DNA from: an uncultured Lachnospiraceae bacterium
GTDB lineage: Bacteria; Bacillota; Clostridia; Lachnospirales; Lachnospiraceae
Direction: 5' to 3'
Assembly (NCBI GenBank): GCA_910588565.1
Contig: CAJUPF010000006.1
Span: 531-64,530, forward strand
DNA length: 64,000 nucleotides
The notes under the pieces are model-generated. The model had not been told where the DNA came from, made no database searches, and was given only the letters and a program-made list of their open reading frames with translations. Shown piece by piece: positions 23,104 through 57,563 of the stretch. Position numbers and translations under genes: made by a program. Within the stretch, counting starts at the first letter, position 1. Each line of letters begins with the position of its first letter.

Positions 23104-23193
23104 TAAATTAGGTTTTTCGTTTTGGAGATTTGTGGTATATTGATTTTATTGAGAAACTGTGTAAGGAACAGAATCCAGAAAGGAGGCTCTTAC

Positions 23194-25046: not shown

Positions 25047-25193
25047 ATATAACAGCAAGTAAACAAAATATACCATTACCTCAAGGGAGTGTCAAATGGT
25101 ATAGAGGGATACCCAAAGGGTGTTACTTGGGATGCGGGTCTGAACGGAGCGTACGGCCGTAAGGATGAGCATTATATATTAAAACAAGTTTTT

Positions 25194-25227
25194 GCAGCAT
25201 GGAAGCTGCAGTAAATTCAAGGAGGAA
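25194..25227 (+). promoter_or_regulatory. Candidate CsrA binding sites in the flagellin leader (GGA-loop hairpin plus a GGA-containing SD)
   Basis: GCAGC-ATGGAA-GCTGC hairpin (25194-25209) presents GGA in its loop. AAGGAGG SD at 25219-25225. The same arrangement occurs at 26632-26663. Confidence 0.55.
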
Positions 25228-25233
25228 AATATT

Positions 25234-26343
25234 ATGGCAATGGTAGTACAGCACAATCTTACAGCGATGAACTCTAACCGTCAGTTAGGCGTTATCACAA
25301 GCGGACAGGCAAAATCATCTGAGAAATTATCATCCGGTTACAAAATTAACCGTGCGGCAGACGATGCGGCAGGATTGAAGATTTCTGAGAAAATGAGAAG
25401 CCAGATCAGAGGCCTTAACAGAGCGTCTACAAACGCACAGGACGGCGTATCCTTACTGCAGACAGCAGAAGGCGCATTGAACGAAGTTCACAGCATTCTT
25501 CAGAGAATGAACGAGCTGGCAATTCAGGGTGCAAACGATACAAACCAGTCTATTGATCGTGACGCTATTAACCAGGAGCTGAAAGCCCTGACAGATGAGA
25601 TCGATCGTGTATCCCAGACAACACAGTTCAACAAACAGGGTCTGTTGGATGGTACATTTGTAGGCAAATCACTTCAGGTAGGAGCAAACCAGAACCAGAC
25701 CATTACATTGAACATTGCAGCAATGAATGCTACAGCAATCGGTATCAAACCAGTTTCCGTTGCTAAAGTGTCCGGCTATATGACGACGAATGAAGTTGTA
25801 AGGAATGCTGGCAAGACAACAGTTTCTGGTACGATCAGACAGTCTATCGGTGCATTGGCAGCGTGCAACGCACAGGTTGGCGTACTTTATTCTGCAAAAG
25901 CGCCTACAACTGCATATTATATGAGAGGTGATGGAGTAGCCGTGACTACTTCTGCTTCTGTTCGTAAATATGTCAGCAAACAGGCAATGTGCGCAGCTCA
26001 GATTTTCGTTGTAAATTCAAAACAGGCAACAAAAGTCAGCTCACCGAACGTAAGGGATTCCCAGCAGGCAACAGGAACCATTACAATGATCCAGAACGCG
26101 ATCAACAATGTATCCGGCCAGAGATCCGCGCTTGGTGCATTACAGAACAGATTAGAGCATACGATTGCTAACCTGGATAACGTAGCAGAGAATACCCAGG
26201 CAGCAGAATCCCGTATCCGTGATACAGATATGGCTTCTGAAATGGTGGAATACAGCAAGAACCAGATTCTTGCACAGGCAGGACAGTCTATGCTTGCACA
26301 GGCAAACCAGTCCAACCAGGGCGTATTGTCACTGTTACAGTAA
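25234..26343 (+). CDS. fliC: Flagellin, copy 1 (369 aa)
   Basis: Start ATG 25234 after AAGGAGG. MAMVVQHNLTAMNSNRQLG..., NRAADDAAGL, LQRMNELAIQ. C-terminal ...ILAQAGQSMLAQANQSNQGVLSLLQ. Confidence 0.97.
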   Translation: MAMVVQHNLTAMNSNRQLGVITSGQAKSSEKLSSGYKINRAADDAAGLKISEKMRSQIRGLNRASTNAQDGVSLLQTAEGALNEVHSILQRMNELAIQGANDTNQSIDRDAINQELKALTDEIDRVSQTTQFNKQGLLDGTFVGKSLQVGANQNQTITLNIAAMNATAIGIKPVSVAKVSGYMTTNEVVRNAGKTTVSGTIRQSIGALAACNAQVGVLYSAKAPTTAYYMRGDGVAVTTSASVRKYVSKQAMCAAQIFVVNSKQATKVSSPNVRDSQQATGTITMIQNAINNVSGQRSALGALQNRLEHTIANLDNVAENTQAAESRIRDTDMASEMVEYSKNQILAQAGQSMLAQANQSNQGVLSLLQ

Positions 26344-26357
26344 TACGAATTTTAAGT

Positions 26358-26386
26358 CAAAGAGCCGGTGCTGCCGGCTCTTTTTG
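26358..26386 (+). terminator. Rho-independent terminator of flagellin copy 1
   Basis: AAAGAGCCGG-TGCTG-CCGGCTCTTT followed by TTG. Confidence 0.85.
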
Positions 26387-26460
26387 TAGTATGATTTAGG
26401 ACAGGATATAAGTGGTGAAGCGTATCTGGCACCAAATAGATTAAAAAAATAAAATGGCTA

Positions 26461-26487
26461 TAAAGTTTTTTGGAAATTTTACGATAT
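26461..26487 (+). promoter_or_regulatory. Sigma-28-type promoter of flagellin gene 2
   Basis: TAAA-N15-TACGATAT, followed by the same ATATATAACAGCAAGTAAACAAAA block as copy 1. Confidence 0.65.
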
Positions 26488-26671
26488 ATATAACAGCAAG
26501 TAAACAAAACAGGATTGTTTCCTCATATTTGCCGCATGGCACTGAGGAATACCTGAAAGATATTGCTTGAGATACAATCTGGATGGAGCGTACGGCCAGA
26601 AGGAGAAGTATTATACATCAAAACAAGTTTTGCAGCATGGAAGCTGCAGTAAATTCAAGGAGGAAAATATT

Positions 26672-27781
26672 ATGGCAATGGTAGTACAGCACAATCTTAC
26701 AGCGATGAACTCTAACCGTCAGTTAGGCGTTATCACAAGCGGACAGGCAAAATCATCTGAGAAATTATCATCCGGTTACAAAATTAACCGTGCGGCAGAC
26801 GATGCGGCAGGATTGAAGATTTCTGAGAAAATGAGAAGCCAGATCAGAGGCCTTAACAGAGCGTCTACAAACGCACAGGACGGCGTATCCTTACTGCAGA
26901 CAGCAGAAGGCGCATTGAACGAAGTTCACAGCATTCTTCAGAGAATGAACGAGCTGGCAATTCAGGGTGCAAACGATACAAACCAGTCTATTGATCGTGA
27001 CGCTATTAACCAGGAGCTGAAAGCCCTGACAGATGAGATCGATCGTGTATCCCAGACAACACAGTTCAACAAACAGGGTCTGTTGGATGGTACATTTGTA
27101 GGCAAATCACTTCAGGTAGGAGCAAACCAGAACCAGACCATTACATTGAACATTGCAGCAATGAATGCTACAGCAATCGGTATCAAACCAGTTTCCGTTG
27201 CTAAAGTGTCCGGCTATATGACGACGAATGAAGTTGTAAGGAATGCTGGCAAGACAACAGTTTCTGGTACGATCAGACAGTCTATCGGTGCATTGGCAGC
27301 GTGCAACGCACAGGTTGGCGTACTTTATTCTGCAAAAGCGCCTACAACTGCATATTATATGAGAGGTGATGGAGTAGCCGTGACTACTTCTGCTTCTGTT
27401 CGTAAATATGTCAGCAAACAGGCAATGTGCGCAGCTCAGATTTTCGTTGTAAATTCAAAACAGGCAACAAAAGTCAGCTCACCGAACGTAAGGGATTCCC
27501 AGCAGGCAACAGGAACCATTACAATGATCCAGAACGCGATCAACAATGTATCCGGCCAGAGATCCGCGCTTGGTGCATTACAGAACAGATTAGAGCATAC
27601 GATTGCTAACCTGGATAACGTAGCAGAGAATACCCAGGCAGCAGAATCCCGTATCCGTGATACAGATATGGCTTCTGAAATGGTGGAATACAGCAAGAAC
27701 CAGATTCTTGCACAGGCAGGACAGTCTATGCTTGCACAGGCAAACCAGTCCAACCAGGGCGTATTATCACTGTTACAGTAA
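26672..27781 (+). CDS. fliC: Flagellin, copy 2 (protein identical to copy 1)
   Basis: Start ATG 26672. Reading by eye, the CDS differs from copy 1 at a single synonymous position (TTG versus TTA near the 3' end). Confidence 0.97.
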   Translation: MAMVVQHNLTAMNSNRQLGVITSGQAKSSEKLSSGYKINRAADDAAGLKISEKMRSQIRGLNRASTNAQDGVSLLQTAEGALNEVHSILQRMNELAIQGANDTNQSIDRDAINQELKALTDEIDRVSQTTQFNKQGLLDGTFVGKSLQVGANQNQTITLNIAAMNATAIGIKPVSVAKVSGYMTTNEVVRNAGKTTVSGTIRQSIGALAACNAQVGVLYSAKAPTTAYYMRGDGVAVTTSASVRKYVSKQAMCAAQIFVVNSKQATKVSSPNVRDSQQATGTITMIQNAINNVSGQRSALGALQNRLEHTIANLDNVAENTQAAESRIRDTDMASEMVEYSKNQILAQAGQSMLAQANQSNQGVLSLLQ

Positions 27782-28093: not shown

Positions 28094-28420
28094 ATGGACA
28101 GATTTTCAGAAGAATTACAGCGGCATATAGAAACTGTGGAACGGATAGGCGATAAGATTGAAAATGGAGAAAACTATATGGAAGACATGAAAGGCTATCT
28201 TCCGGCCCTGAACCAGATGATGACAGGGATTTTTCAGATATTGCAGGAGCCGGCTTCCCCACTAGGGTTAAATCAGGGATATGTCGTGCAGGTATTAAAT
28301 GATATTCTGTACGGGATTGAACACAGAGATTCCGTATTTTTGCTGGATGTCCTGCGGTATGGCCTGTTAGAAATTTATCATTTTCTGGAAAAAGAATTGC
28401 AAAGCGAGGGAGTACAATGA
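28094..28420 (+). CDS. Small helical protein of unknown function preceding maf
   Basis: Start ATG 28094 after GAGGAGG. 108 aa. Its stop overlaps the maf start (ATGA). Confidence 0.5.
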   Translation: MDRFSEELQRHIETVERIGDKIENGENYMEDMKGYLPALNQMMTGIFQILQEPASPLGLNQGYVVQVLNDILYGIEHRDSVFLLDVLRYGLLEIYHFLEKELQSEGVQ

Positions 28421-30339
28421 ATCAACTCATTTATGAAAAAAATATGGATGCTTTACGGACAAAATATCCGGTATGGGCTAAGATTTTAGAAGACGTAAAA
28501 CGGAAAAAAAGAAATTTTGACGTAATGGCTGAGGAAAGCCTGACGGGTGAAGTTATTCTTAAAGTAAATCAAGAGGGACGGGTATTGTATCTGAATGGAA
28601 GATACGCGCCCGCCGCGGTGATAGATCGGTGGTTTGACCGCCAGGGGGATATTGAGGAGTACGCTCCTATCGTCATTATCGGCATTTCAAATGGTGAGCA
28701 TATACGCCGGATTATAGAACGCGCGCCTAAGACGTCGAATATTTTGATTTATGAACCATCCTTTGAGCTTTTCCGCAGAGCGATGCAGGAGGTAGATATA
28801 TCTTTTATCTTTCAGCCGGATATTCCCGTCGGGATTATTGTGGAAGGTATGAATGAGTATGAAATGGACGCTTTTTTTCACTTTTTCATTTCTTATGACA
28901 ATATGGCGTTCCTTCGTTATTATGTATCAGGAAATTATCAGGAATTGTTTCCTGAACAGGTAGAAGATTTTGTTGCGGGGATGAAGAAATATATATCAGA
29001 TATTCATGTGTCCTGGGATACGGTTTTGCGTTATGCAAATGTAAGAGCAGTGAACGTACTTGCAAATCTGCCTTATCTATATGAAGGATATAGTATGGGA
29101 GAATTATATGGTATGCTGCCGGAGGATATTCCGGTTATCATTGTTTCTGCAGGTCCGTCTTTGAATAAAAATATTATGGATTTGAAGAAAGCGGTAGGAA
29201 AAGCCTGTATCATTGCTACGGATACGGCTATGAAACCTCTTTTAAATGCGGGAATTAAGCCTAATTTATTTGTAATTGTAGATGGATTAAAGCCAGAGCT
29301 TCTTTTTTTGCATAAAGATATTTCAAAAGTTCCAATGGTTACGATGACGGCTGTATCTACAGAACCTATGGCATGTCATAAGGGAAAGAAGTTTTTTTAT
29401 TATGCGGATTCTGGTTTTGAAAATGAGATATTAAAAGAGCTGGGGGAAAAGGAAGGAGCAAATAGAATGCTGCCTTGTCTGATGACCGGAGGCTCTGTGG
29501 CGACGTCCGCTTTTTCTCTGGCGCTGAATATGGGCGCGAGGACAGTGATTTTGGTTGGACAGGATCTGGCGATGACAGGAAACAGAACGCATGCGGATGG
29601 TACGTTTCAGGATAAAATGGATGAAATCAATACGAACAGCAGAGAGTATTTTGAAATAGAGGCGGCAGACGGCGGTAAGGTTTTAACCAGAGCGGATTTT
29701 AAGCTTTACTTGGAATGGTTTGAAAAATATATTAAAGAATGGGATCATATTACCGTTGTGGACGCGACAGAAGGAGGCGCGTTAATTCACGGCAGTAAAA
29801 TTATGACGTTAAAGAATGCGATTAAAAAATACTGCAAACGAGAATTTAATGTGAAATGGCATATTGACCACTGCAAAAAGTTGTTTGTTGGGGAAAACCG
29901 TGAAATTGCAATCAATTGTTTTGCGAATTCTATTGAAAAATTAGAAGAGGTAAAAAAGAAAGCGAACGAGGGACTGCGTTATTATGAACGTTTGGAGAAG
30001 CTGGTAAAAAAACACAGGGATTCCGGTAAGGAATTGGGTAAGGTCTTAAAAAAGATTAAAAAGCTGAATCACTATATGGAATCAGATTATATGGCGCAGA
30101 CAGTTATGGACAGTCTGGTGGGGTTGAATTATACGCTTCGGCCATTGGTATACCAGATGCAGGAAGAGCGTGCGGATGAGCTTCTGGATGTGGCGGCGCA
30201 GGGCAGAGTTTTATTGTACGGGGTAACAGTAGCTGTGGATGAAATTAAACTGATAGCGGAGAAAACGGTTGTGGAATATGCGAAAACACATCCAATTGAA
30301 AGGAAAAAGAATGGTAGAGAGGGCAATGATCAGTTATGA
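28417..30339 (+). CDS. maf: Motility-associated factor (Maf/DUF115-type) putative flagellin glycosyltransferase
   Basis: Core PVIIVSAGPSLNKN...CIIATDTAMKPLLNAGIKPNLFVIVD...GGSVATSAFSLA...VGQDLA is typical of Maf/MptE-like proteins. Position directly after the flagellin genes. Confidence 0.8.
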   Translation: MNQLIYEKNMDALRTKYPVWAKILEDVKRKKRNFDVMAEESLTGEVILKVNQEGRVLYLNGRYAPAAVIDRWFDRQGDIEEYAPIVIIGISNGEHIRRIIERAPKTSNILIYEPSFELFRRAMQEVDISFIFQPDIPVGIIVEGMNEYEMDAFFHFFISYDNMAFLRYYVSGNYQELFPEQVEDFVAGMKKYISDIHVSWDTVLRYANVRAVNVLANLPYLYEGYSMGELYGMLPEDIPVIIVSAGPSLNKNIMDLKKAVGKACIIATDTAMKPLLNAGIKPNLFVIVDGLKPELLFLHKDISKVPMVTMTAVSTEPMACHKGKKFFYYADSGFENEILKELGEKEGANRMLPCLMTGGSVATSAFSLALNMGARTVILVGQDLAMTGNRTHADGTFQDKMDEINTNSREYFEIEAADGGKVLTRADFKLYLEWFEKYIKEWDHITVVDATEGGALIHGSKIMTLKNAIKKYCKREFNVKWHIDHCKKLFVGENREIAINCFANSIEKLEEVKKKANEGLRYYERLEKLVKKHRDSGKELGKVLKKIKKLNHYMESDYMAQTVMDSLVGLNYTLRPLVYQMQEERADELLDVAAQGRVLLYGVTVAVDEIKLIAEKTVVEYAKTHPIERKKNGREGNDQL

Positions 30340-32006
30340 TAGCGGAAGAAATATTAGCATACGGGATACAGCAATTTGAGGAAAAGAAATATGATGCTGC
30401 TTTAGACGCAATGGTGTTGGCTTTTACAAAAGGATATCAAAGGGAATGGATATTGGCAAATATTTATTCATGCTATATGGATGGCAATGAAGCTGAATTT
30501 AGGGAATGTTATAATACGTGTTGTATTTATAAGGATATTTCTTATACGGAATGCTGCTTGGATTTTATACCATATAAAGACAGCGAATACTATATTTTTG
30601 ATAAGATGGAACAGAAGTTTTTAGGAATTGTATCTGTACAGGAAATGTTTCAGGCAGAGGAGTTAAAAAGGGAGTTTGATGATGTTGCAATTGAGCTTGA
30701 TTGGGACTGGAGAAAATATAAGGAATCACTGAAATGGGCGTTCAAGCATAAGGTTTATGCAATATGTCATGACAGAAAGCGAGCGGCTTCATTTTGTAAA
30801 ATTCCAGAATTTGTAGATTGTTTTAGAAAGATAAAGGCTTTTGCAGACAGGAAGGCATATCAAAAATATTTCCATGAGGACACAGGTGTTGTTTTACCAA
30901 GGTTTTTCCTAGGTGAAGAGGGGAGTCGGCAAGAATTTGTGCGGATATGGGAAGAGGAACATGCATACCGTATAACAGCAGAAGGCAGAAACAAGGATCA
31001 TATTTTGCTGACAATAGGAATCCCTACGTTTGATCGCGGATTTCTGGCCTTACAAAAGGTGAGGAATTTACTGGAAATGACATATGACGCCGAAATTGAG
31101 ATAGTGGTTTCAAAAAATGGAACGAAATTATACCAGGAGGATTATCAGCAAATTGCGGAAATATCAGACGCCAGGCTTCATTATGTGGATCACAATAGAA
31201 CGCTGACAATGGAAGAAAATTTTAGGAACACAATTGCGTTGGCAAAGGGCAGGTATGTCTTGCTGGTGAGTGATGAAGATAATGTGCTGTTGGAGTCTTT
31301 AGACCATTATCTTGCTGTTTTGGCGCGAAATAAAAATTTATCTTATGTTAGGGCAAAAACAAAAATACAATATTCTCATATAAAGGATCATTTCTACAAA
31401 AGAGGAATCGAAGCCTTTTCGGGAGCGTTTCTTGCGGGCAATTATTTATCCGGGAGTATAGTTAAGAGAGAGTCGCTCTTGAAATTGCCATTAGATGAAA
31501 TTAGAGAGTATGCAAAAAATAATGCGTTTTATATACATTATTGCCATGATTGGTGGTTTTCGATGCTTGCTTTTGAAGGTGATTTTCGGCAGGATGCTAT
31601 ATGTTTAATTGCAGAAGGCGAAAGTATATTAGATATGATGCAAGAGGAATATAAGAAAATAGGCGCAGAAAATCCAATTAATTATGGAAATGGAATGCTG
31701 GGATATGCAACATACGAGAGTAGATTGGAACAGTTTAAAGGATATATAGCGTTTTTGCATTTTATCAAAGATGTTGGATTGGATGTCATAAGGGCAGGCG
31801 TACACATAGCAATTGGAAAAACCGGTTATTTATTGCGCATAATCTATGTTATATGTAATTATAAACCGGAGCGGATTGGGGATGTAATGATGCAATTTTT
31901 TGAACTTTGCACACAGGCGGTTGATGAGTTCCCATTTGACGATGTACAGAAGAATGAATTATTATCATGGGCTGTTTTCAACATAGAGGCAATTGTAGCT
32001 AAGTAG
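30336..32006 (+). CDS. Glycosyltransferase family 2 domain protein with a ~215-aa N-terminal extension
   Basis: GT-A core LLTIGIPTFDRG...EIEIVVSKNG...LLVSDEDN (DxD-like). Confidence 0.6.
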   Translation: MIAEEILAYGIQQFEEKKYDAALDAMVLAFTKGYQREWILANIYSCYMDGNEAEFRECYNTCCIYKDISYTECCLDFIPYKDSEYYIFDKMEQKFLGIVSVQEMFQAEELKREFDDVAIELDWDWRKYKESLKWAFKHKVYAICHDRKRAASFCKIPEFVDCFRKIKAFADRKAYQKYFHEDTGVVLPRFFLGEEGSRQEFVRIWEEEHAYRITAEGRNKDHILLTIGIPTFDRGFLALQKVRNLLEMTYDAEIEIVVSKNGTKLYQEDYQQIAEISDARLHYVDHNRTLTMEENFRNTIALAKGRYVLLVSDEDNVLLESLDHYLAVLARNKNLSYVRAKTKIQYSHIKDHFYKRGIEAFSGAFLAGNYLSGSIVKRESLLKLPLDEIREYAKNNAFYIHYCHDWWFSMLAFEGDFRQDAICLIAEGESILDMMQEEYKKIGAENPINYGNGMLGYATYESRLEQFKGYIAFLHFIKDVGLDVIRAGVHIAIGKTGYLLRIIYVICNYKPERIGDVMMQFFELCTQAVDEFPFDDVQKNELLSWAVFNIEAIVAK

Positions 32007-32015
32007 GAGGATATT

Positions 32016-33806
32016 ATGATAAAGCTGTCAGATTATATTTTTACATATTTTGAATCTATTGGGATGACCACAGTATTTACACTGACAGGCGGCGGCATTA
32101 TGCATCTGGTAGATTCTCTTGGGCGCAGCAAGATGGAATATGTCTGCTGCCATCATGAACAGGCGGCTGCAATTGCGGCACAGGCTTACGCTATGTATCA
32201 AGAACAAATAAGCGTATGTTTAGTGACTACAGGACCAGGTGGAACAAACGCATTGACAGGAGCTGCAGCCGCGTATGTAGATTCTACGCCTGTACTTTAT
32301 ATGAGCGGACAGGTGAAAAGGGATGATTTTGCGAGACTGAGGGGAGTTAGGCAGTTTGGAGCGCAGGAAAATGATATTGTTGCAATGGCAAGGCCTGTTA
32401 CAAAATATGCTGTATTAGTAATGGAACCAGAAGATATTGCTTATGAATTGGAAAAATGTATTTATCTGGCGACTCATGGGCGGAAAGGGCCTGTCTGGAT
32501 TGATATTCCATTAGATGTGCAGTCTTCGATGATTGACGAAAGCAGGCTGCGGCACTATAAGCCTGATTTTGAGGAAGCGGAGGCAGATTTAAAGCAGTCG
32601 GCGGGGCAGACATTGGATATGCTCGAACATGCGAAAAGGCCGACGCTTTTGGTGGGGCAGGGAATGGTATCTGCGAAAGCACAGGCGCTTACGCGTCAGT
32701 TTGTTGAAATAACAGGAATACCGGTACTTGCCACATGGAGGGCGCTGGATTTTATGGGAAGCGGGGAAGCGGGATTTTTTGGAAGCCCAGGGCTTCAGGC
32801 ACCCAGATATTCAAATCTGATTTTGCAGCATGCGGATGCGTTGCTTGTATTAGGAAGCAGAATGGACAATATGATTACGGCCTTTAATGAAGAACATTTT
32901 GCTTATCGTGCAAAAAAGGTAATTATTGATATTGATGAAAATGAAATAAAAAAACTAGCAATGACAGATGTTTTACCAGTCGTTGCAGACGTCAGGGAGT
33001 TTATGGAAGTTCTGTTAAATGAATGTATGATTCGGGATTTTAAACCGGATTATAGCAGATGGATTTGTAAATGCCAGGAGTTAAAAAACCGATTTCCCGT
33101 TTTAGAGGAAAAGCAGGACAAGGAAGAGAATGTCAGCCTTTATCAGGTTACAGAGGAAATATCGAAATATGCCAAGGTAGAAGATACAATTGTAATTTCA
33201 TCAACCAGCCGCTGCAATACGGCAGGACATATTGCGTTTTCCCATAAAAGAGGACAGAAAACAATATCCTCTATGGGAATGGGATCTATGGGGTTTGCAT
33301 TACCTTCGGCAGTGGGGGCATATTATGCGAATGGGAAGAACCGGGTGATTGTAATAGAAGGCGACGGAAGCTTTCAATTAAACATCCAAGAGTTGGAGAC
33401 AATTGTATCGAATCATATTGAAGCCAAAATATTTGTCTTCAATAACGCCGGATATGCTGCGATTACTACAATGCAGGATCGGAATTTCGACGGTTTTTAT
33501 GTCGGCAGTAATGAGAAAAGCGGATTATTTATGCCAGACTTGGAAAAGATTGCATTTGCCTACGGTATAAAATTCTGTACAATAGAAAATGATGAAGAGA
33601 TAGAGAAAACAGTAAAAGATGTGATGGAACAGAAAGGCGCTGTGATTTGCAGTATAGAAGGCTCGCTTTGGTTTGATGAGATACCGAAATGCGTTTCTGC
33701 TGTAGATCAAAAGACAGGGAAGAGGGTATCAGCGTATTTAGAAAATCCATATCCATATTTAGAGGAAGAAGAGTTAAAAGAAATTGAGACAGAATTATTA
33801 TGGTGA
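32016..33806 (+). CDS. Thiamine-diphosphate-dependent enzyme (acetolactate synthase large-subunit-like; candidate YerE-type sugar branching enzyme)
   Basis: TGPGGTNALTGAAAAYVDSTPVLYMSGQV and the ThDP motif GDGSFQLNIQEL...NNAGY. Confidence 0.8.
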   Translation: MIKLSDYIFTYFESIGMTTVFTLTGGGIMHLVDSLGRSKMEYVCCHHEQAAAIAAQAYAMYQEQISVCLVTTGPGGTNALTGAAAAYVDSTPVLYMSGQVKRDDFARLRGVRQFGAQENDIVAMARPVTKYAVLVMEPEDIAYELEKCIYLATHGRKGPVWIDIPLDVQSSMIDESRLRHYKPDFEEAEADLKQSAGQTLDMLEHAKRPTLLVGQGMVSAKAQALTRQFVEITGIPVLATWRALDFMGSGEAGFFGSPGLQAPRYSNLILQHADALLVLGSRMDNMITAFNEEHFAYRAKKVIIDIDENEIKKLAMTDVLPVVADVREFMEVLLNECMIRDFKPDYSRWICKCQELKNRFPVLEEKQDKEENVSLYQVTEEISKYAKVEDTIVISSTSRCNTAGHIAFSHKRGQKTISSMGMGSMGFALPSAVGAYYANGKNRVIVIEGDGSFQLNIQELETIVSNHIEAKIFVFNNAGYAAITTMQDRNFDGFYVGSNEKSGLFMPDLEKIAFAYGIKFCTIENDEEIEKTVKDVMEQKGAVICSIEGSLWFDEIPKCVSAVDQKTGKRVSAYLENPYPYLEEEELKEIETELLW

Positions 33807-33826: not shown

Positions 33827-34903
33827 ATGAGCGATAAAAAAGAGCTGCCGTTAGTCAGTATATTGATGCCGAACTATAATTATTCCCGGTACTTAGATCA
33901 GTGTATCCAAAGCGCAATTCATCAGACTTATCCTCATAAAGAAATTATTTTCTGTGATAATAGTTCCACAGACGACTCAGTAAAAGTGGCGGCAAAGTAT
34001 AGAAAAGACGGGGTAATGATCTGCAGGAACCAATGCAACATTATGAATTATAATTACAGATTATTAACAGAAGAATACTGCAGGGGAAAGTATTTTATTT
34101 TGTTGTGCACGGACGATTATTTACTTCCAGATTTTATAGAAACGGCGGTTGCCATAATGGAAAAATATCCGGATGTGGGGTATGTACATGGAGAACGGGA
34201 TTTTGTGACTTCGGAAAATAAGTTGGTGGAACAGGATCCCTTTTATAAATGTAGTTTTGTAGCGCCAGGAAAGAAGACAATGCCTGTCTATATGGTAGAG
34301 ACAGTTGCCCATCCGTCACAGGGGGTAATACGCAGGGAGGCTTTTCAAAGCATTGGGGGTTATGATATGGAAATTGACTGCCTGAATGCAGACCGTTCTT
34401 TGTGGTTTTATTTATCTTATCAGTATGACTCTTCATTTATATGTAGGAAAATGAGTAGAATTCGTGTAGGAATTCAATCCGAGACAGCAATTCTTTTGCA
34501 GAATTTCCAAATGCCTGTTTTGTATCATCTTATTATAAAAGATTTTGTTAATTTTGCCCAAAATTACAATCTTCCAGAAGTATATGAGAGGGAAGGAGAG
34601 GCGTTGCAGCGGCTGGCAAAAGAATTTGTAGGATATGCAGGAAATATGTTATATATGAATCATGTGAAACAGGCAGAGGCTTATCTGAAATACGCCAAAA
34701 TTGTATTTAGAGACGTAGTAAATGAAGGATTATATCAGGCGTTTAACAGTATGATTCAGAAAAATTTGGTGGATAAGCGTTTTATAGAACAACAGAATCA
34801 GGAATATAACGAGCATAAGAGGAGCTATGAGCCGCCACAGGGCTATATGGAGATTAACCCGGAGGAATTAGTACGATGGCTGAGGCAAAAATACAGATTT
34901 TAA
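33827..34903 (+). CDS. Glycosyltransferase family 2
   Basis: VSILMPNYNYSRYLDQCIQSAIHQTY...IIFCDNSSTDDS...CTDDY. Confidence 0.8.
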   Translation: MSDKKELPLVSILMPNYNYSRYLDQCIQSAIHQTYPHKEIIFCDNSSTDDSVKVAAKYRKDGVMICRNQCNIMNYNYRLLTEEYCRGKYFILLCTDDYLLPDFIETAVAIMEKYPDVGYVHGERDFVTSENKLVEQDPFYKCSFVAPGKKTMPVYMVETVAHPSQGVIRREAFQSIGGYDMEIDCLNADRSLWFYLSYQYDSSFICRKMSRIRVGIQSETAILLQNFQMPVLYHLIIKDFVNFAQNYNLPEVYEREGEALQRLAKEFVGYAGNMLYMNHVKQAEAYLKYAKIVFRDVVNEGLYQAFNSMIQKNLVDKRFIEQQNQEYNEHKRSYEPPQGYMEINPEELVRWLRQKYRF

Positions 34904-35868
34904 TACCCACATGTAACAGTGTGAATGATTTGGATATAACCGTGGAAAGTATACAAGAACAGAATTACGATCCTGAGAATATTTACATTACCATTGTGGA
35001 TTTTGGATCAAATGATGGAACATATGAAAAAGCCTTAGGTTATAATGGGAAACATCTGGGGATATATTCAAGGCCGTTTCAGAAAAATTGGAGGCAGCGG
35101 CTGACGGATGCTGCAAGAATTATCGAATTTACACGTCCAGGCGGTATGTATTGTTTATCAGCAGTGATGTATCCAGGAGATATTATGTATTCGGACTGCC
35201 TTCAAACGATTTCGGACAAATATATAGAAAGTTTTCAGTTACATCCATCAATGGTAGTATGTGAAAGTGATATTTTTCTGGATAATGGCGAGATAGAGAA
35301 GCAAGGCTCGTTATTTGCAGAGGATTGCGTCATAGATGGGAGCAGGGAGATAAACAAATATGTTGAAAGAGGTTACCGGCATCAGATTTTCCAAATGACT
35401 CCAGAATTTGCCAGAGGGAGGCGTAAGGAGAATTATGAAATGAATGAAGGAAGAAGCTGGAATAAGCTCTTTTGGAGAAATGAGGAAAGGATGACCCTAT
35501 ATATACAGAAACCATTGGTGTGTACAAGAAGAATGATATATGAGGATGAGCTTCAGGAAATCTTGTATCGTTGGGACGCTCATATACATATTGTCCGTTG
35601 GTATACAAATAAATATGGACAGGTATTTGACAATAGGTTTTTAGATGTTGCAAATGCGAATTTAGCAGAGTACGCTCTCTGGAGAAGTTTTTCCCTGCAT
35701 CAAAAAAAGGCGCAGTGGAAGGAAATAGAGGATTGCTTTTTGATTTCAGAAGTTATCTCTTCCACCATAAAGGAAAAAGAAATTTATTCTAAAATGCAAA
35801 AATTGATATTGGAAAAGGATTTGGCGGAGAAAAGCTCCATTAAACAATACTTTAGTAAACAGTATTAA
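34876..35868 (+). CDS. Glycosyltransferase family 2-like
   Basis: IQILIPTCNSVNDLDITVESIQEQNY...ITIVDFGSNDGT. Overlaps the previous gene by 28 nt. Confidence 0.6.
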   Translation: MAEAKIQILIPTCNSVNDLDITVESIQEQNYDPENIYITIVDFGSNDGTYEKALGYNGKHLGIYSRPFQKNWRQRLTDAARIIEFTRPGGMYCLSAVMYPGDIMYSDCLQTISDKYIESFQLHPSMVVCESDIFLDNGEIEKQGSLFAEDCVIDGSREINKYVERGYRHQIFQMTPEFARGRRKENYEMNEGRSWNKLFWRNEERMTLYIQKPLVCTRRMIYEDELQEILYRWDAHIHIVRWYTNKYGQVFDNRFLDVANANLAEYALWRSFSLHQKKAQWKEIEDCFLISEVISSTIKEKEIYSKMQKLILEKDLAEKSSIKQYFSKQY

Positions 35869-38078: not shown

Positions 38079-39614
38079 ATGGCAGGATTTGTTAAACCGT
38101 TATTTATTTTTGAAATGGCTAATAACCATCAGGGGAGCGTGGAACACGGTAAGAGTATTATTGGAGAGATTCGCAAAGTATGCGATTCGTTTCCAATGTT
38201 TGATTTTGCTTTTAAATTTCAGTACCGGGATTTAGATACTTTTATCCATCCGGATTATAAAGGGCGGGAAGATATTAAGAATGTAAAGCGTTTTCAGGAC
38301 ACCAGATTAAGTATGAAGCAGTTCCAGGAGTTATTAGACGAAGTCCGGAAGAAACAGTTTCAGGCAATTTGTACCCCATTTGATGAAATATCCGTAGATC
38401 GAATTGCAGAGCAGGGATATGATTATATTAAAATTGCAAGCTGTTCTTTTACAGATTGGCCTTTGTTGGAACGGATTGCTTCAAAGAAAATGCCGGTCAT
38501 TGCGTCTGGGGCGGGAAGCAGTATGGAAGACGTTCGTAATGTGGTGAATTTTTTCCGCAATCGGAATATCCCGTTTTCTTTGATGCACTGTGTGGCGGAA
38601 TATCCAACGGAAAACCAGAAACTTCAATTAAACCAGATTGATTACTACCATGCGCAGTTTCCTGATATCAGGATTGGGTTTTCTACGCACGAAGCTCCGG
38701 ATAATGTGGTTCCGGTTAAGCTGGCGGTTGCAAAAGGAGCGGAGATTTTTGAAAAGCATGTGGGACTTCCAACAGAGACGATTCAGTTAAATGGATATTC
38801 TGCAAATCCAAAACAAGTGGAGTCGTGGCTTGCATCGGCAAAGGAAGCATTTGATATTTGTGGGATTGTTGGTGAACGTTATCATTCAACGGTAAAAGAG
38901 CAGGCTGATTTGGCCGCGTTAAAGAGGGGAGTGTTTACAAAAAAACCGCTGGAAGGAGGCGGATTTATCAGTACAGACGACATATATCTGGCGTTTCCAT
39001 GTAAAGAAGGCCAGCTGGTGGCAAGTGATTTATCTAAATATAATAAGATTCAGTTAAAAAAAGGCATGAATGAACCTGATATGCCGATTATGGCAGAAAA
39101 CACAGAAATGACGAATACGTCAAAGGATACACTGGATATAATGGAGCGGTTAATAGCTTTATTGGTAGAAAGTAATGTTGTGGTTCCGGCAGGAAGCAGC
39201 TGTGAAATTTCACATCATTACGGTATAGAAAATTTTGGGCAGACTGGAGTGGCAATGATTGATTGTGTGAATCGGGAATATTGCAAGAAAATCCTTGCCG
39301 TGCTGCCCGGACAGTCGCATCCTGGCCATTATCATAGAAAGAAAGAAGAGACATTTGTGGTTCTGCATGGGGAACTGAACATTGTATTGGATGGAAACGA
39401 TACGGTTTTACATAAGGGAGATATTATGACAATTGAACGGAATGTGAGTCATAGTTTTTCATCGGAAAAGGGATGCATTTTTGAAGAGATATCGACGACA
39501 CATTACGCAAATGATTCAATATATCCAGAAAGCGATAAGTTTGTAAGGCCGAGAAAAACTATGGTACACTTTACACAGGAGATGCTGAGAGAAATTAATG
39601 GGAAGGAAGCTTAA
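38079..39614 (+). CDS. NeuB-family (sialic/ulosonic acid synthase-like) protein fused to a C-terminal cupin
   Basis: LFIFEMANNHQGSVEHGKSII, IKIASCSFTDWPLLE, LMHCVAEYPT, GFSTHE. C-terminal cupin GHYHRKKEETFVVLHGEL...GDIMTIERNVSHSF. Confidence 0.75.
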   Translation: MAGFVKPLFIFEMANNHQGSVEHGKSIIGEIRKVCDSFPMFDFAFKFQYRDLDTFIHPDYKGREDIKNVKRFQDTRLSMKQFQELLDEVRKKQFQAICTPFDEISVDRIAEQGYDYIKIASCSFTDWPLLERIASKKMPVIASGAGSSMEDVRNVVNFFRNRNIPFSLMHCVAEYPTENQKLQLNQIDYYHAQFPDIRIGFSTHEAPDNVVPVKLAVAKGAEIFEKHVGLPTETIQLNGYSANPKQVESWLASAKEAFDICGIVGERYHSTVKEQADLAALKRGVFTKKPLEGGGFISTDDIYLAFPCKEGQLVASDLSKYNKIQLKKGMNEPDMPIMAENTEMTNTSKDTLDIMERLIALLVESNVVVPAGSSCEISHHYGIENFGQTGVAMIDCVNREYCKKILAVLPGQSHPGHYHRKKEETFVVLHGELNIVLDGNDTVLHKGDIMTIERNVSHSFSSEKGCIFEEISTTHYANDSIYPESDKFVRPRKTMVHFTQEMLREINGKEA

Positions 39615-42295: not shown

Positions 42296-43363
42296 ATGGC
42301 TAGAATTTTAATTGCGGGAGCGGGAGGAGCACCTTCAGAGGGTGTGATTCATTCATTATTGCTAAGTCCGCAGCAGGAAGAAATAATCGGTATGGGGGCA
42401 GCAGCGTCGGATTTGGTATTATCAAATGCAAAGAGAAAGTATTTGATACCTTATGCAAACGATCCCGCTTATAAAAAAGAGCTGATAAAGGTATTGGATA
42501 AGGAACATCCAGATCTGATTCATTTTCAGAACGATTTGGAAATCTATCATGCATCTTTAATCAGAGATGATATTATGGCCTGCGGCACAAATATATATAT
42601 GCCCCGGCATGAGGTTATTGAAACTTGTGTAAGTAAATGGAAGTCCTGGAGAGCATTTAAAAGAGCCGGAATTGTTGTGCCGCAGAATATATTTATTAGG
42701 GATGAAGCTGACTTAAAACTGGCTTTTAAAGAACTTGGGGATGAAGATGGCAAAGTGTGGCTCAGGGCAGAATCCATGGGAGGAGGCGGAATAGGTTCTA
42801 TTCCCACAAATGATTATGCAATGGCGAAAGCCTGGATTGACAGATATCATGGATGGGGGAATTTTATTGCGGCTGAAATGCTTGGATGCCAGACAGTAAC
42901 ATTTCTTTCGATCTGGTGGAAGGGAGAGTTGATCTGCGGACAGACCAGGAAGAGAGCGGGCTGGATTCATGGCAATAGATCCGCGTCTGGCGTGACCGGA
43001 GTTACAAAAGTTGGAACAACTTGTAGTGATGAGATTGTTACAGATACCGCAATTAAATCAATTAAAGCTGTTGATCATGATCCGCATGGTATTTTTGGCG
43101 TTGATATGGCTTATGATAAGAATGGAGCGCCAAATCCTACTGAGATCAATATTTCCAGATTTTTTACGACAATTTTGTTCTTTACAAGAGCTGGATTAAA
43201 TATGCCGGTAATTTTTAAGGATTTAGCGCTTTATGGAAAGCGGCCAAAATTGGAAAAAAGGATTAATCCATTGCCCGATGGGCTCAGCTGGTTTCGGGGG
43301 ATGGACACAGAACCTAGATTGCTGGCAATGGATGAAATGGGCAGGGAGTTGATTCAATTATGA
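42296..43363 (+). CDS. ATP-grasp domain protein (carboxylate-amine ligase-like)
   Basis: ARILIAGAGGAP... N-terminal pre-ATP-grasp. K.W..F...G..VP, GKVWLRAE, GVDMAYDKNGAPNPTEIN. Confidence 0.65.
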   Translation: MARILIAGAGGAPSEGVIHSLLLSPQQEEIIGMGAAASDLVLSNAKRKYLIPYANDPAYKKELIKVLDKEHPDLIHFQNDLEIYHASLIRDDIMACGTNIYMPRHEVIETCVSKWKSWRAFKRAGIVVPQNIFIRDEADLKLAFKELGDEDGKVWLRAESMGGGGIGSIPTNDYAMAKAWIDRYHGWGNFIAAEMLGCQTVTFLSIWWKGELICGQTRKRAGWIHGNRSASGVTGVTKVGTTCSDEIVTDTAIKSIKAVDHDPHGIFGVDMAYDKNGAPNPTEINISRFFTTILFFTRAGLNMPVIFKDLALYGKRPKLEKRINPLPDGLSWFRGMDTEPRLLAMDEMGRELIQL

Positions 43364-44256
43364 AAATATTAATTACAGGGGCTTCTGGTTTTGTGGGAAG
43401 TAAAGTATTGGACAGGTTAAAGCTGATATATGGAACTGAAAGTATAATTGCTCTTTCTTCAAGAAGTATTGAGGGCGTTAAAACAGTTGATTCTCATAAC
43501 TATAAATTTGGCAGGAATTATTTGGAAGAAAGCGGCTGCGGGGATGTTAAGGTTTTAATCCATATAGGCGCCTTTATACCAAAAGCTGCAAAGGATGTAG
43601 ATAATATGGAGTTAACAACAGAAAATATTGAAAATACGCAGCGTTTGCTGCAATCTCGAATGGAACAATTAGAAAAAATTATTTTTATTAGTACTATAGA
43701 TGTATATGCACGTTGTCAGGGTACTTTAGATGAAACAATGTTGACTGTGCCTTCAACTTTATATGGTTGGTCGAAACTTTATTGTGAGGAGATGGTTAAA
43801 AAATATTGTATAGAAAAGAAATGCAGCTACGAAATTTTGAGACTTGGTCATGTTTATGGAGAAGGGGAAGAAAAATATAAAAAAGCAATGCCTTCGATGA
43901 TAAACAATGCCGTTATGGGAAAAGATTTAAATATTTACGGAGATGGAAAAGCTGTCAGGACATTTGTTTACATTGATGATGTCGCCGAGGCAATTGTGAA
44001 TGCAATAAATTTATACGAATCCGAGACGATTAATGTTGTTGGAAATGAAAGTGTCACAATAGAAGAATTAGCCAAAATGATACAATCCTTTGCCGATAGG
44101 CAGATTAATATTATACATACGCCTTCGGATGTGTCAAACGTAAATTATGTCTTTGATAATTCTAAAATGAGAATGCATTTGATTCAGTCGTTTACTCCAT
44201 TAGAAGCAGGTTTAAAGAGGGAGTATGATTATATGAAAGAAAAGCTGGGACAATGA
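43360..44256 (+). CDS. NAD-dependent sugar epimerase/dehydratase/reductase (extended SDR)
   Basis: KILITGASGFVGSKV, and YGWSK (YxxxK). Confidence 0.85.
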   Translation: MKILITGASGFVGSKVLDRLKLIYGTESIIALSSRSIEGVKTVDSHNYKFGRNYLEESGCGDVKVLIHIGAFIPKAAKDVDNMELTTENIENTQRLLQSRMEQLEKIIFISTIDVYARCQGTLDETMLTVPSTLYGWSKLYCEEMVKKYCIEKKCSYEILRLGHVYGEGEEKYKKAMPSMINNAVMGKDLNIYGDGKAVRTFVYIDDVAEAIVNAINLYESETINVVGNESVTIEELAKMIQSFADRQINIIHTPSDVSNVNYVFDNSKMRMHLIQSFTPLEAGLKREYDYMKEKLGQ

Positions 44257-46158: not shown

Positions 46159-47238
46159 ATGAGCGAGACATTGAATAAATACGAACAAGCGGGAAGGAAT
46201 TATTTAAAAGAGAAAAAACCATATGTGTTTGAAAAGGTTTCAAAATTTACAGAAAAATATAAACGTGGAGAAAGCATTGCAATTATTCAGCTTCAATATA
46301 ACTATATGTGTAATATGCTCTGCGAGCATTGTTCTATAGAAGCATATCAGAAAAATGCTGCAGGAAAAAGGAGCCTGACGCCAAAAGATGTGGCAGGCTT
46401 GGCAAAACAGGCAGATGATATGGGGCTTGCACGATTTGTGATTTCAGGAGGGGAACCTACGGTATTTCCGGATTTGGACGAATTGGTGGCGGCGATTGAT
46501 CCTGAAAAGTTTTTTATTAACAGCGATTCAAACGGATTTTTGCTGGCGGAAAAAGCAGAGCATATGAAAAAAATTGGAATAGATCGGATACAGTTAAGTA
46601 TAGACAGCCTGAATCCTGAAGAACATGATGAGTTTCGCCGTAAGCCGGGGGCGTGGAAACGGGCAATGGAAGGAATTGATGAGTGCCAGCGGATAGGGCT
46701 TCCATTATATATACAGACTGTCGTAACAAAACAAAGGTTATATTCGGATGAATTTATTCAGTTTTTAGAGTATTTTAACCGACGGGGATTAAATGTATTT
46801 ATTTCTTTTGCGAAACCGGTCGGCGCATATGCGGGGCATTATGAAAGCATGGTGGACGCTAAGGATCTGGCATATGAGCGTCAGCTGGAAAAAAAATATC
46901 AGCTTTGTACACATTTAACGCCGGGGTATGGATTGGATATGGGGTGCATTGGCGTAAAGGGGTTCGTCTCAGTTACACAATATGGCGATGTTCAGCCCTG
47001 CCCATATTTCCATTGTTCAATAGGTAATATTTTTGAGAAACCGTTTCAGGATATTATCGATACTGGAATGAATATTAAGTTTTTTGGAGAACACGTGGAT
47101 ACATGTCTGCTGGCGGCAGACCTTCCATGGGTAAAAAAATATGTGGCGGATAAAATATATGGGAAACCGGTGCCGGTTCCTTATAATCAGGTTTTTACAG
47201 AAGAAGACAGAACCGTAAAGCCTTATTGGAAAAATTAG
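46159..47238 (+). CDS. Radical SAM protein with a Cys-rich (SPASM/twitch-like) C-terminus
   Basis: CNMLCEHCS (CxxxCxxC), ISGGEPTVFPD, C-terminal GDVQPCPYFHCSIGN. Confidence 0.8.
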   Translation: MSETLNKYEQAGRNYLKEKKPYVFEKVSKFTEKYKRGESIAIIQLQYNYMCNMLCEHCSIEAYQKNAAGKRSLTPKDVAGLAKQADDMGLARFVISGGEPTVFPDLDELVAAIDPEKFFINSDSNGFLLAEKAEHMKKIGIDRIQLSIDSLNPEEHDEFRRKPGAWKRAMEGIDECQRIGLPLYIQTVVTKQRLYSDEFIQFLEYFNRRGLNVFISFAKPVGAYAGHYESMVDAKDLAYERQLEKKYQLCTHLTPGYGLDMGCIGVKGFVSVTQYGDVQPCPYFHCSIGNIFEKPFQDIIDTGMNIKFFGEHVDTCLLAADLPWVKKYVADKIYGKPVPVPYNQVFTEEDRTVKPYWKN

Positions 47239-47270: not shown

Positions 47271-48251
47271 GTGGCAAAAAAAGAGAGAGTACTTGTAACG
47301 GGAGGAACTGGAGTTACCGGCGTGGCATTAGTACGGCATTTGCTAAGGAATAACAAAGAAGTAACCGCTATTGTGAGGCCGCACAGCAAGAGAAGCCGCT
47401 ATTTGCCGGAAGACAAAGATTTACATGTTGTGGAATGCAGCCTGGCGGATTACGACAGGATCGGAGTGGAAGAATTAGGGAAAGATTATTCTGTATTTTA
47501 TCATCTTGCGTGGGACGGTTCGACAGGAAAAGAAAAAGTGGACAATCGGAACAATATGCAGCTTCAGGCACAAAATATTCAATATGATATTAAGGCAGTG
47601 GAACTGTGCAGGCGGATAGAATGCCCCGTATTTCTGGCAACAGGAACACAGGCGGAATATGGTCTTTGCGATACGGTAATCAATGAAGAAACAGAAACAT
47701 ATCCGGAGAATGGCTATGGCTCTGCTAAGCTGTGCGCGGGCCAGATGACCAGAATTTTGTGTAATATGTATGGGATTAAGCATATATGGGCGAGACTGTT
47801 CAGTGTATATGGACCATATGATGGAACACAGAGCCTGATATATACCAGTATGATAAAATTGATGTCTGGTAAATGCCCGCAATATACAGCCGGAAAACAG
47901 ATTTGGGATTATTTATATTCTTTTGATGCAGCCAGGGCGTTAGCTTTGCTGGGCGAGAAGGGCAGAGCAGGCGAAATCTACTGTGTAGCCAATGGCAAAT
48001 CAGAGATACTGCGTTCTTATATTTTGAAACTTCATGAAGTTGTAAATCCTGAAATTCCTGGAATATTTGGGGAAATACCATATACTTCGAATCAAGTGAT
48101 GAATCTACAGGTGGATACAAAAAAATTGCGGCGAGATACGGGATTTATACCAGAGTATACCTTTGAAGACGGCATAAAAGAAATTTTTGCATGGTGTAAA
48201 AAGGAACTTCAGATTTTGACTAAAAACGATCTAAACGAACTGATTTTCTAG
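47271..48251 (+). CDS. NAD-dependent sugar epimerase/reductase (extended SDR; GTG start)
   Basis: VLVTGGTGVTGVALV, and YGSAK (YxxxK). Confidence 0.8.
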   Translation: MAKKERVLVTGGTGVTGVALVRHLLRNNKEVTAIVRPHSKRSRYLPEDKDLHVVECSLADYDRIGVEELGKDYSVFYHLAWDGSTGKEKVDNRNNMQLQAQNIQYDIKAVELCRRIECPVFLATGTQAEYGLCDTVINEETETYPENGYGSAKLCAGQMTRILCNMYGIKHIWARLFSVYGPYDGTQSLIYTSMIKLMSGKCPQYTAGKQIWDYLYSFDAARALALLGEKGRAGEIYCVANGKSEILRSYILKLHEVVNPEIPGIFGEIPYTSNQVMNLQVDTKKLRRDTGFIPEYTFEDGIKEIFAWCKKELQILTKNDLNELIF

Positions 48252-48290
48252 AATGGTAATTATGAAATTTTGTTTCAAGAGGAGAAAATA

Positions 48291-57536: not shown

Positions 57537-57563
57537 TTGGATAACAGTTTGAGGGAAAAACAT

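Follow-up and report, generated by a model that had tools for sequence, protein, structure and literature searches.

A probable YerE-like sugar-branching enzyme in a flagellin glycosylation island of an uncultured Lachnospiraceae bacterium

What question does this locus raise?

What is an enzyme with the looks of an acetolactate synthase doing among glycosyltransferases, shortly behind a pair of flagellin genes? This is the question posed by the open reading frame (ORF) at 32016-33806 of a 64,000-nucleotide stretch of DNA from an uncultured Lachnospiraceae bacterium (the whole of which we call the window: positions 531 to 64,530 of contig CAJUPF010000006.1, assembly GCA_910588565.1), and our answer, held with moderate confidence, is that it encodes a YerE-like carboligase, dependent on thiamine diphosphate (ThDP), that would add a carbon branch to the cytidine diphosphate (CDP)-linked sugar CDP-4-keto-3,6-dideoxyglucose for a flagellin glycan, the donor being likelier a longer 2-keto acid than pyruvate. 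A preliminary description of the window had already pointed to a ThDP enzyme of the YerE rather than the acetolactate synthase kind, without amino-acid-biosynthesis neighbours and in a flagellin context, and on all of these counts it has held up well; its further suggestion, a two-carbon branch from pyruvate as in yersiniose, now looks less likely.

Much of what follows leans on two comparative samples. The first consists of 80 loci of ThDP relatives, one genome per species and 17 named phyla in all, whose ORFs were called and then grouped into families by single-linkage BLAST clustering; contig ends cut some of these loci, so that every count out of 80 is a lower bound, and those in which 8 kb or more flank the ThDP gene on either side, 40 in number, form a full-flank subset. 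The second is a survey of the window's family by 150 other genomes, each from a different genus, and since related genomes are not independent we attach no p-value to its co-occurrence counts. Four loci (L055, L059, L062 and L082), in which no ThDP ORF passed the clustering, are absent from the trees and from the distance statistics, and ThDP ORFs shorter than 480 amino acids were excluded from the trees.

Is it an acetolactate synthase?

The ORF is intact, lies on the plus strand and encodes 596 amino acids, its ATG falling 9 bp past the stop of the upstream gene, and Pfam recognises TPP_enzyme_N, TPP_enzyme_M and TPP_enzyme_C in the product. Across 60 relatives the catalytic Glu48 is invariant and G449, D450, G451 and N477 are conserved, and the window protein itself reads as a canonical GDG (449-451) followed by NN (477-478), which gives it the three-domain architecture, the catalytic Glu and the GDG...NN diphosphate-Mg motif of a ThDP enzyme.

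The first thought on meeting such a protein would be an ordinary acetolactate or acetohydroxyacid synthase (AHAS), working for branched-chain amino acids or acetoin, and it is the names that pull in this direction: the top NCBIfam models are all AHAS large subunits, and some sources label members of the lineage, close relatives included, as acetolactate synthase, or else as "thiamine pyrophosphate-binding protein" (the close relatives carry names from Lachnospiraceae and Selenomonas). The scores, however, fall below every curated cut-off, at 350.1 bits against 538.35 for TIGR00118 and at 216 and 199 bits against 510 and 551 for the AlsS models, whereas three other ThDP paralogues elsewhere in the same genome, about 30% identical to the window protein, reach 748, 715 and 671 bits with TIGR00118, above the AHAS cut-off.

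The preliminary description had asked for a phylogeny with acetolactate synthases, and in it the ORF stands well apart. Our first tree (maximum likelihood, 81 rows, LG+G4, a short search, and support from the Shimodaira-Hasegawa-like approximate likelihood ratio test, SH-aLRT, only) places 77 of the 81 rows, the window protein among them, in one clade with a support of 100 and a stem of 1.07, away from the three AHAS paralogues. A second tree, which adds seven rows from genomes of the order Enterobacterales and leaves out the ThDP ORF of L121, splits the three paralogues together with L087 and L128 from the 82 other rows, again with a support of 100 and over a length of 1.09. Deep branching within the ThDP clade is unresolved, and in the second tree three rows (L066, L032 and L037) come out loosely placed close to the root, where long-branch attraction is a concern. 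Two score groups are also seen among 401 Enterobacterales-order genomes, with seven matches at 314-405 bits and all others at 266 bits or less, and the direct neighbours of the window gene are glycosyltransferases, with no amino-acid genes. We have thus rejected the AHAS identity on the sub-cut-off scores, the three bona fide AHAS genes elsewhere and the fully supported long branch: judged by its sequence the ORF is not an acetolactate synthase, and we regard that explanation as scarcely credible.

What are its closest relatives?

Among proteins of known structure the best match is JanthE (8rph, 8rpi and 8rpj; 337 bits), which aligns end to end (residues 2-587), the match taking in a C-terminal extension not present in AHAS, with PpYerE (5ahk) at 245 bits and AHAS at 235 or less. 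A profile built from 60 relatives widens the gap to 667 bits for JanthE, 470 for PpYerE, 442 for E. coli AHAS I and about 425 for plant AHAS, and we assign the family to that of JanthE, although identity is only moderate. The two also differ at one motif, the canonical GDG of the window protein being CDG in JanthE; we saw the CDG in one locus of the clade, L066, and an SDG in four proteobacterial relatives, both counts being minimums since the motif search missed 16 of 81 rows owing to offsets. At the position that matches an engineering hotspot of JanthE, a Tyr, the window protein carries Phe.

JanthE, from Janthinobacterium sp. HH01, is described as a YerE-like, ketone-accepting ThDP enzyme (PMC12247030 and PMC12188165, both cited, here and below, from the part of their text available to us), and such enzymes are sought after for making chiral tertiary alcohols (PMC12247030, in part). 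It accepts 2-keto acids of three carbons and more, hydroxylated ones among them, as well as ketones (PMC12188165 and PMC12247030, in part), its physiological substrates being stated as unknown (PMC12188165, in part). In Yersinia pseudotuberculosis O:VI, YerE branches CDP-4-keto-3,6-dideoxy-D-glucose and the reductase YerF acts next (PMC9306805; PMC12247030, in part). PpYerE is called homologous to this YpYerE (PMC12247030, in part).

In the published 'unifying scheme' the CDP-4-keto-3,6-dideoxyglucose genes are joined by those for a ThDP enzyme, a reductase that uses NAD(P)H and a donor-forming enzyme whose product is a longer 2-keto acid; for erwiniose, caryophyllose and gastriose that product is a 4-hydroxy-2-keto acid, made by an aldolase of the cluster and used in turn by the ThDP enzyme, and ErwE rejects pyruvate (PMC9306805). 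The ErwI/J-ErwE-ErwF, MMAR_2331/2332 and MygI/MyGE/MygF clusters follow the same logic as our island, a comparison made by cluster composition and not by named sequences. Loci of the BphI/J type (L052, L058, L075, L122 and L123) and of the HpaI type (L017, L019, L024 and others) fall in the window's ThDP clade. L123, erw-like by gene order only, has its ThDP gene followed by a 1-kb gene, an acetaldehyde dehydrogenase and an aldolase, beside rfbFGH, as compared with the erw order of the P. atrosepticum-type cluster (PMC9306805). With JanthE as the nearest structure, ErwE-type clusters in the same clade and a lineage tied to rfbF/G/H, the ORF most likely encodes a YerE-like carboligase that depends on ThDP and branches sugars.

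What would it act on?

The operon of the ThDP gene also holds rfbF, rfbG and rfbH, all three above their equivalog cut-offs (Table 1) and equivalents of the Yersinia genes ddhA/B/C. Starting from glucose-1-phosphate, RfbF (the copy at 60834), RfbG and RfbH would yield CDP-4-keto-3,6-dideoxy-D-glucose, the very kind of ketone on which YerE works. The association is a recurrent one, with RfbH found at 40, RfbF at 34 and RfbG at 37 of the 80 ThDP loci, and at 25, 21 and 23 of the 40 full-flank loci, respectively. It is strong within the window's family: a clade-level match to the ThDP enzyme occurs in 35 of the 150 genomes, and RfbH (62-75% identity) accompanies it in 33 of these 35, as against 25 of the 115 genomes that lack it (58 of 150 overall), lying within 30 kb of the ThDP gene on the same contig in 28 of the 35.

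Might the ThDP enzyme branch no CDP-sugar at all? It could, for instance, only decarboxylate a NeuB-type 2-keto-3-deoxy acid to a shorter aldehyde, or ligate onto a nonulosonic intermediate or some other 4-keto sugar. Six loci (L049, L074, L076, L080, L124 and L127), in which the ThDP gene abuts a NeuB gene (NeuB/SAF) with no rfbFGH within 10 kb, lend this some colour, and such pairs may perform different chemistry, ulosonic acid decarboxylation being one example; other keto-sugar routes are also at hand in the island, in the form of an FdtA/DegT pair and a legionaminic acid pathway. The strong co-occurrence with RfbH, both in the family and in the window's own subclade, points the other way, as does the fact that the characterised relatives ligate onto ketones (PMC9306805; PMC12247030, in part), and we think this alternative quite improbable.

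Two observations on these genes may be added. The second RfbF gene of the island (57537-58340), which is borderline in score and has a degenerate glycine-rich nucleotide-binding motif, is not an oddity of one genome, since the Lachnospiraceae relative L010 has the same pair and the odd copy is therefore conserved; perhaps it is a regulator, or acts on another substrate. In three of the family genomes (G489, G423 and G515) a single in-frame TAG interrupts an otherwise full-length match to the ThDP enzyme or RfbH, and these stops may represent pseudogenes, sequencing errors or read-through.

What would be added, and how would the sugar be finished?

The sequences show what the genes are, to which lineage the ThDP enzyme belongs, how the genes are linked and that the operon is continuous; every chemical step, those of the Rfb enzymes included, we infer, and the later ones as follows. 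The ThDP enzyme would decarboxylate a 2-keto acid and add the acyl carbanion to the C-4 ketone, creating a tertiary alcohol with a carbon branch, after which the ketone of the branch would be reduced by the short-chain dehydrogenase/reductase (SDR) at 47271-48251. One of the many glycosyltransferases of the island would then place the branched sugar into a flagellin glycan that would also contain a legionaminic-acid-type sugar, attached by Maf. As the donor we favour over pyruvate a longer 2-keto acid with hydroxyl groups, which a protein with a NeuB-like domain joined to a cupin (NeuB-cupin) would make from phosphoenolpyruvate and an aldehyde, and the product would then stand nearer to erwiniose or caryophyllose than to yersiniose.

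The case for a longer donor comes from what accompanies the ThDP gene in other bacteria. Sorted by potential donor-forming partner, the 80 loci comprise 13 with NeuB-cupin, 10 with an HpaI aldolase, six with a BphI/DmpG aldolase (five of which also have the dehydrogenase, by Pfam) and 51 with none, and not one is mixed; these partners are always on the strand of the ThDP gene. In nine of its 13 loci no more than 134 bp separate NeuB-cupin from the ThDP gene, and a cupin-less NeuB lies within 500 bp of that gene in seven further ones, such that NeuB-ThDP pairs, cupin-fused and cupin-less taken together, recur in many phyla. The gene order is rfbF-rfbG-rfbH-NeuBcupin-ThDP in L018, L025 and L085 (Chromobacterium, Methylophilus and a gammaproteobacterial metagenome-assembled genome, MAG) and rfbH-NeuBcupin-ThDP in L020, a Rhizobiales MAG. 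Taken together, the NeuBcupin-ThDP loci have genes for a C-methyltransferase, a radical SAM protein and an SDR close behind, and for all but the SDR the window holds orthologues at 40-49% identity: 47-49% for the C-methyltransferase in L014, L025 and L085 (its family occurs in 9 of the 80 loci), and 40-42% for the radical SAM enzyme in L018, L025 and L085, beside NeuB-cupin and ThDP. The window has neither of the two pyruvate aldolase families (HpaI/citrate-lyase or BphI/DmpG), and its NeuB-cupin finds its best structural match, at 376 bits, in the uncharacterised "SpsE" 3g8r, with no more than 83 bits for true sialic acid synthases.

Closer to home the pattern sharpens. In the window's 17-row ThDP subclade (support 99), 15 rows have a keto-acid-forming partner beside the gene or on the contig, namely NeuB-cupin in 10, a cupin-less NeuB in three and an HMGL-like enzyme in two, where it lies directly upstream of the ThDP gene. 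One of the 10 is the window's nearest relative, L008, whose ThDP enzyme is 80% identical and whose NeuB-cupin, 12.7 kb downstream on the same contig, is 83% identical. In a tree of the NeuB-cupin proteins the window copy groups with a ThDP-adjacent copy at 100/98, outside the Maf-linked clade that the copies from genomes without a ThDP enzyme form together with L010 at 99/100. With a NeuB-cupin of the ThDP-linked lineage occupying the slot of the donor-forming aldolases, a branch longer than that of yersiniose becomes the likelier one. In its full form the proposal is that NeuB-cupin makes a sialic-acid-like 2-keto-3-deoxy (ulosonic) acid from phosphoenolpyruvate and an aldose, and that the ThDP enzyme joins it, carbon to carbon, to CDP-4-keto-3,6-dideoxyglucose, giving a long-branched, higher-carbon sugar on the filament; so specific a scheme we put forward tentatively, as a possibility worth pursuing.

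Other partners are seen as well. The HMGL-like enzymes, in two Lachnospiraceae loci (L012 7783-9408, 541 amino acids; L015 6148-6969, 273 amino acids), lie between rfbH and the ThDP gene and are candidates for a fourth type of donor-forming partner. Directly upstream of the ThDP gene of L010 (8071-9997) stands a HAD+SIS fusion with KdsC- and KdsD-like domains, together with a short NeuB-like gene, an arrangement that looks like a Kdo-type route to a 3-deoxy sugar acid feeding the ThDP enzyme.

As to the reductase, two SDRs had been suggested for the part, and only the one at 47271 has gained from comparison. Its ORF family (family 5) is present in 23 of the 80 loci, and of the 21 in which both it and the ThDP gene were measured, 18 have the two no more than 200 bp apart, a placement that fits a YerF/ErwF role, while the other, at 43360, though a real extended SDR, belongs to no recurring ORF family.

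Is flagellin the target?

The setting is a flagellin glycosylation island, as the flagellins, a Maf-type glycosyltransferase and a nonulosonic acid pathway stand in one locus and confirm. Between 28417 and 61610 run 26 genes on the same strand, none of the 25 gaps between them exceeding 102 bp; the run begins with Maf directly after the two flagellin genes and ends with rfbF'-rfbG-rfbH-rfbF, and the ThDP gene is its third member. FliD and FliW are also encoded in the window, and beyond it the contig continues with an acetyltransferase, NeuB/SAF, a 2-epimerase, a CMP-transferase, a PtmE-like nucleotidyltransferase, a dehydratase and an aminotransferase, which together make up a pathway of the legionaminic acid type. 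L008 shares the order Maf-GT-ThDP-GT-GT (GT, glycosyltransferase), the two downstream genes being syntenic at 66% and 54% identity. Two further genera have flagellin genes at a distance of about 13 kb from rfbFGH, the ThDP gene and a NeuB-like one, and flagellin genes are found beside the module in Methylophilus and in a verrucomicrobial MAG. It is from this position that we infer flagellin to be the probable target.

What speaks against this reading?

A fair number of observations weigh against the pathway that we favour. Textbook 3-deoxygenation needs more than RfbF, RfbG and RfbH, for an RfbH-type E1 requires an E3 reductase (RfbI, AscD or DdhD). No E3 was found in the window or in the rest of the contig; in the genome, PF00175 gave only two proteins, on other contigs and by eye PyrK-like and NfnA/GltD-like (PF00111 and PF00970 were not searched). 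The earlier statement that the three Rfb enzymes make the CDP-4-keto sugar holds, then, as far as the genes are concerned and falls short at this reductase. E3-like ORFs were detected in just three of the 80 relatives' loci by a motif search of 1,250 ORFs (plant-type 2Fe-2S plus FNR motifs), which is crude and may miss real E3s, and this rarity in most relatives' loci suggests that RfbH may draw on a housekeeping reductant. The yersiniose A cluster, in contrast to our island, includes ddhD (PMC4509608, in part), and its donor is pyruvate (C2). In addition, RfbH is not nearby in 15 of the 40 full-flank loci.

Descent is a second matter. Against the profile of the family PpYerE comes out barely above AHAS I, and a protein hardly closer than AHAS leaves room for a different lineage doing similar chemistry: common descent with the Yersinia enzyme is unproven, shared chemistry likely, and the lineage may be a different one. 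The Yersinia protein is also reportedly a flavoprotein, to go by the title of Chen et al. 1998.

On the donor, the competing idea is that pyruvate supplies an acetyl branch, reduced to hydroxyethyl to give a yersiniose-like sugar, with NeuB-cupin making an ulosonic acid for another branch of the flagellin glycan. Both JanthE and YpYerE accept pyruvate (PMC12247030, in part), and in the window 4.3 kb lie between NeuB-cupin and the ThDP gene. Homologues of NeuB-cupin (42-46% identity) occur in nine of the 150 family genomes, none of which has the ThDP enzyme, and in six of the eight such loci that were fetched (the ninth genome, G409, not being among them) the gene follows a Maf gene, with flagellin beside it in four; the family can evidently serve flagellin glycosylation without a ThDP enzyme, and this Maf-linked clade (L129-L136) suggests a ulosonic acid on Lachnospiraceae flagellins that has gone undescribed. 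SDR family 5, moreover, is typical of Firmicute loci with no donor-forming enzyme within 10 kb (such as L041, L046, L063 and L071). What tips us away from pyruvate is that the window's NeuB-cupin belongs to the ThDP-linked and not the Maf-linked lineage, that nearly the whole subclade has a keto-acid-forming partner, that L008 keeps its NeuB-cupin on the contig, and that a canonical NeuB with a full legionaminic acid pathway is already available for Maf. The pyruvate explanation is, to our minds, rather unlikely, and we judge the long branch the more likely of the two by a modest factor, not more.

In the window 13.5 kb separate the candidate reductase from the ThDP gene, and in the erw-like locus L123 the ORF that takes the place of ErwF resembles no window protein, the two SDRs included, from which we conclude that the reductases of the scheme are not one family.

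Finally, the branched sugar might be made for a capsule, a cell-wall polysaccharide or an S-layer glycan instead of flagellin. Within the family, flagellin lies near the ThDP gene in only two of the 35 genomes that have it, and 16 of the 35 gave no flagellin match; among the 80 loci a Maf gene occurs in one and flagellin in two, and many glycosyltransferases of the island have no assigned target. The ThDP module thus usually serves other, non-flagellar glycans. In the window, however, the gene stands third in a Maf-led operon right after two flagellins, with no gap of more than 102 bp all the way to rfbF, and L008 repeats the order, so that for this bacterium we consider a non-flagellar destination unlikely.

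What is new, and why does it matter?

The kind of pathway is known and the flagellar setting is unusual. The preliminary description had supposed that a branched-chain dideoxyhexose on a Gram-positive flagellin would be new, and this needs some trimming, since 3,6-dideoxyhexoses have already been predicted, in a paper of 2026, for flagellar islands of Clostridium butyricum, C. sporogenes and C. thermosuccinogenes (PMC13317340, in part). Those Maf islands resemble ours in combining RfbF/G/H, nonulosonic-acid genes and Maf in a Gram-positive flagellar island, and differ in that they are predicted to make unbranched paratose via RfbS (PMC13317340, in part), whereas ours has a branching enzyme. 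In the text of that paper available to us no branching enzyme is described, and the words thiamine, acetolactate and branched do not occur. Our literature search found no paper on yersiniose, caryophyllose or erwiniose as a flagellin sugar, and as far as such searches reach neither a YerE-like enzyme within a flagellin glycosylation operon nor the frequency of the ThDP enzyme in Lachnospiraceae is in print. The same can be said of a NeuB-type partner in place of the aldolase, with the proviso that Krug et al. 2024 may already cover NeuB partners or Firmicute clusters.

Set against the clusters of the unifying scheme, the window differs in three ways: it has no pyruvate aldolase and would use the phosphoenolpyruvate-dependent NeuB-cupin in its place; its glycoconjugate is apparently a Gram-positive flagellin glycan and not a lipopolysaccharide or lipooligosaccharide; and its module is spread over 30 kb where theirs are compact. 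If the donor proposal is true, ulosonic acids derived from phosphoenolpyruvate would join aldolase products as a class of donors for ThDP carboligases, and NeuB-type partners would broaden the donor range of ketone-accepting ThDP enzymes in biocatalysis.

There is a practical side too. Routine naming as acetolactate synthase means that gut-microbiome annotation would count this lineage as amino-acid metabolism, when here it probably marks a rare branched-deoxysugar pathway. With the enzyme in about a quarter of the sampled genera of the Lachnospiraceae family, abundant gut bacteria probably display branched sugars that have not been described chemically, and in this genome the bearer of the sugar may be flagellin, which is the main antigen of Lachnospiraceae that the host sees; this offers a concrete target for glycopeptide mass spectrometry.

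Table 1. Genes of the window discussed in the text, in order of position
Feature	Coordinates	Strand	Basis
Two flagellin genes heading the island	25192..27781 (25192-26343, 26567-27781)	+	Pfam Flagellin_N and Flagellin_C in each
Maf-type flagellin glycosyltransferase, first gene of the island	28417..30339	+	Pfam MptE-like and Maf_flag10_N; PseD-like domain 112 bits (cut-off 670)
GT2-like protein directly upstream of the ThDP gene	30336..32006	+	No Pfam match; weak WcaA-like GT2
Probable YerE-like (JanthE-lineage) ThDP-dependent carboligase	32016..33806	+	Pfam, NCBIfam, PDB match, trees
Two GT2 glycosyltransferases directly downstream	33827..35868 (33827-34903, 34876-35868)	+	Pfam Glycos_transf_2
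Fusion of a NeuB-like phosphoenolpyruvate-condensing domain with a cupin; proposed to make the 2-keto-acid donor	38079..39614	+	Pfam NeuB and Cupin_2
Extended SDR	43360..44256	+	Real extended SDR; in no recurring ORF family
Radical SAM enzyme of the recurring module	46159..47238	+	Pfam Radical_SAM
Extended SDR, candidate branch ketoreductase (YerF/ErwF role)	47271..48251	+	Pfam Epimerase; ORF family 5
Sugar C-methyltransferase of the recurring module, TylC3-like C-terminal domain	48270..49433	+	Pfam Methyltransf_23 and Methyltransf_14
RfbF paralogue	57537..58340	+	TIGR02623 302 bits (cut-off 300), borderline; glycine-rich nucleotide-binding motif degenerate
RfbG, CDP-glucose 4,6-dehydratase	58380..59447	+	TIGR02622 449 bits (cut-off 278)
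RfbH (E1), CDP-4-keto-6-deoxyglucose 3-dehydrase	59465..60808	+	NF011936 706 bits (cut-off 423)
RfbF, glucose-1-phosphate cytidylyltransferase	60834..61610	+	TIGR02623 370 bits (cut-off 300); motif intact

What else is in the neighbourhood?

Three further features deserve a mention. A DegT aminotransferase gene overlaps that of an FdtA-type 3,4-ketoisomerase (39619-41150; Pfam FdtA, 172 bits), and L008 and L085 have the same pair; it implies a route to a 3-amino-3,6-dideoxy sugar, and the only hexose-1-phosphate 4,6-dehydratase of the island is CDP-linked. At 23122-24912, with FliD and other flagellar genes on one side and the flagellin pair on the other, lies a gene for a predicted AAA-ATPase with a PD-(D/E)XK nuclease domain. 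And about 7 kb past the end of the window, after the legionaminic acid genes and on the strand of the island, there is a gene for a ThiT/YuaJ thiamine transporter (L007 9558-10094), whose presence so close to a ThDP enzyme may be a coincidence.

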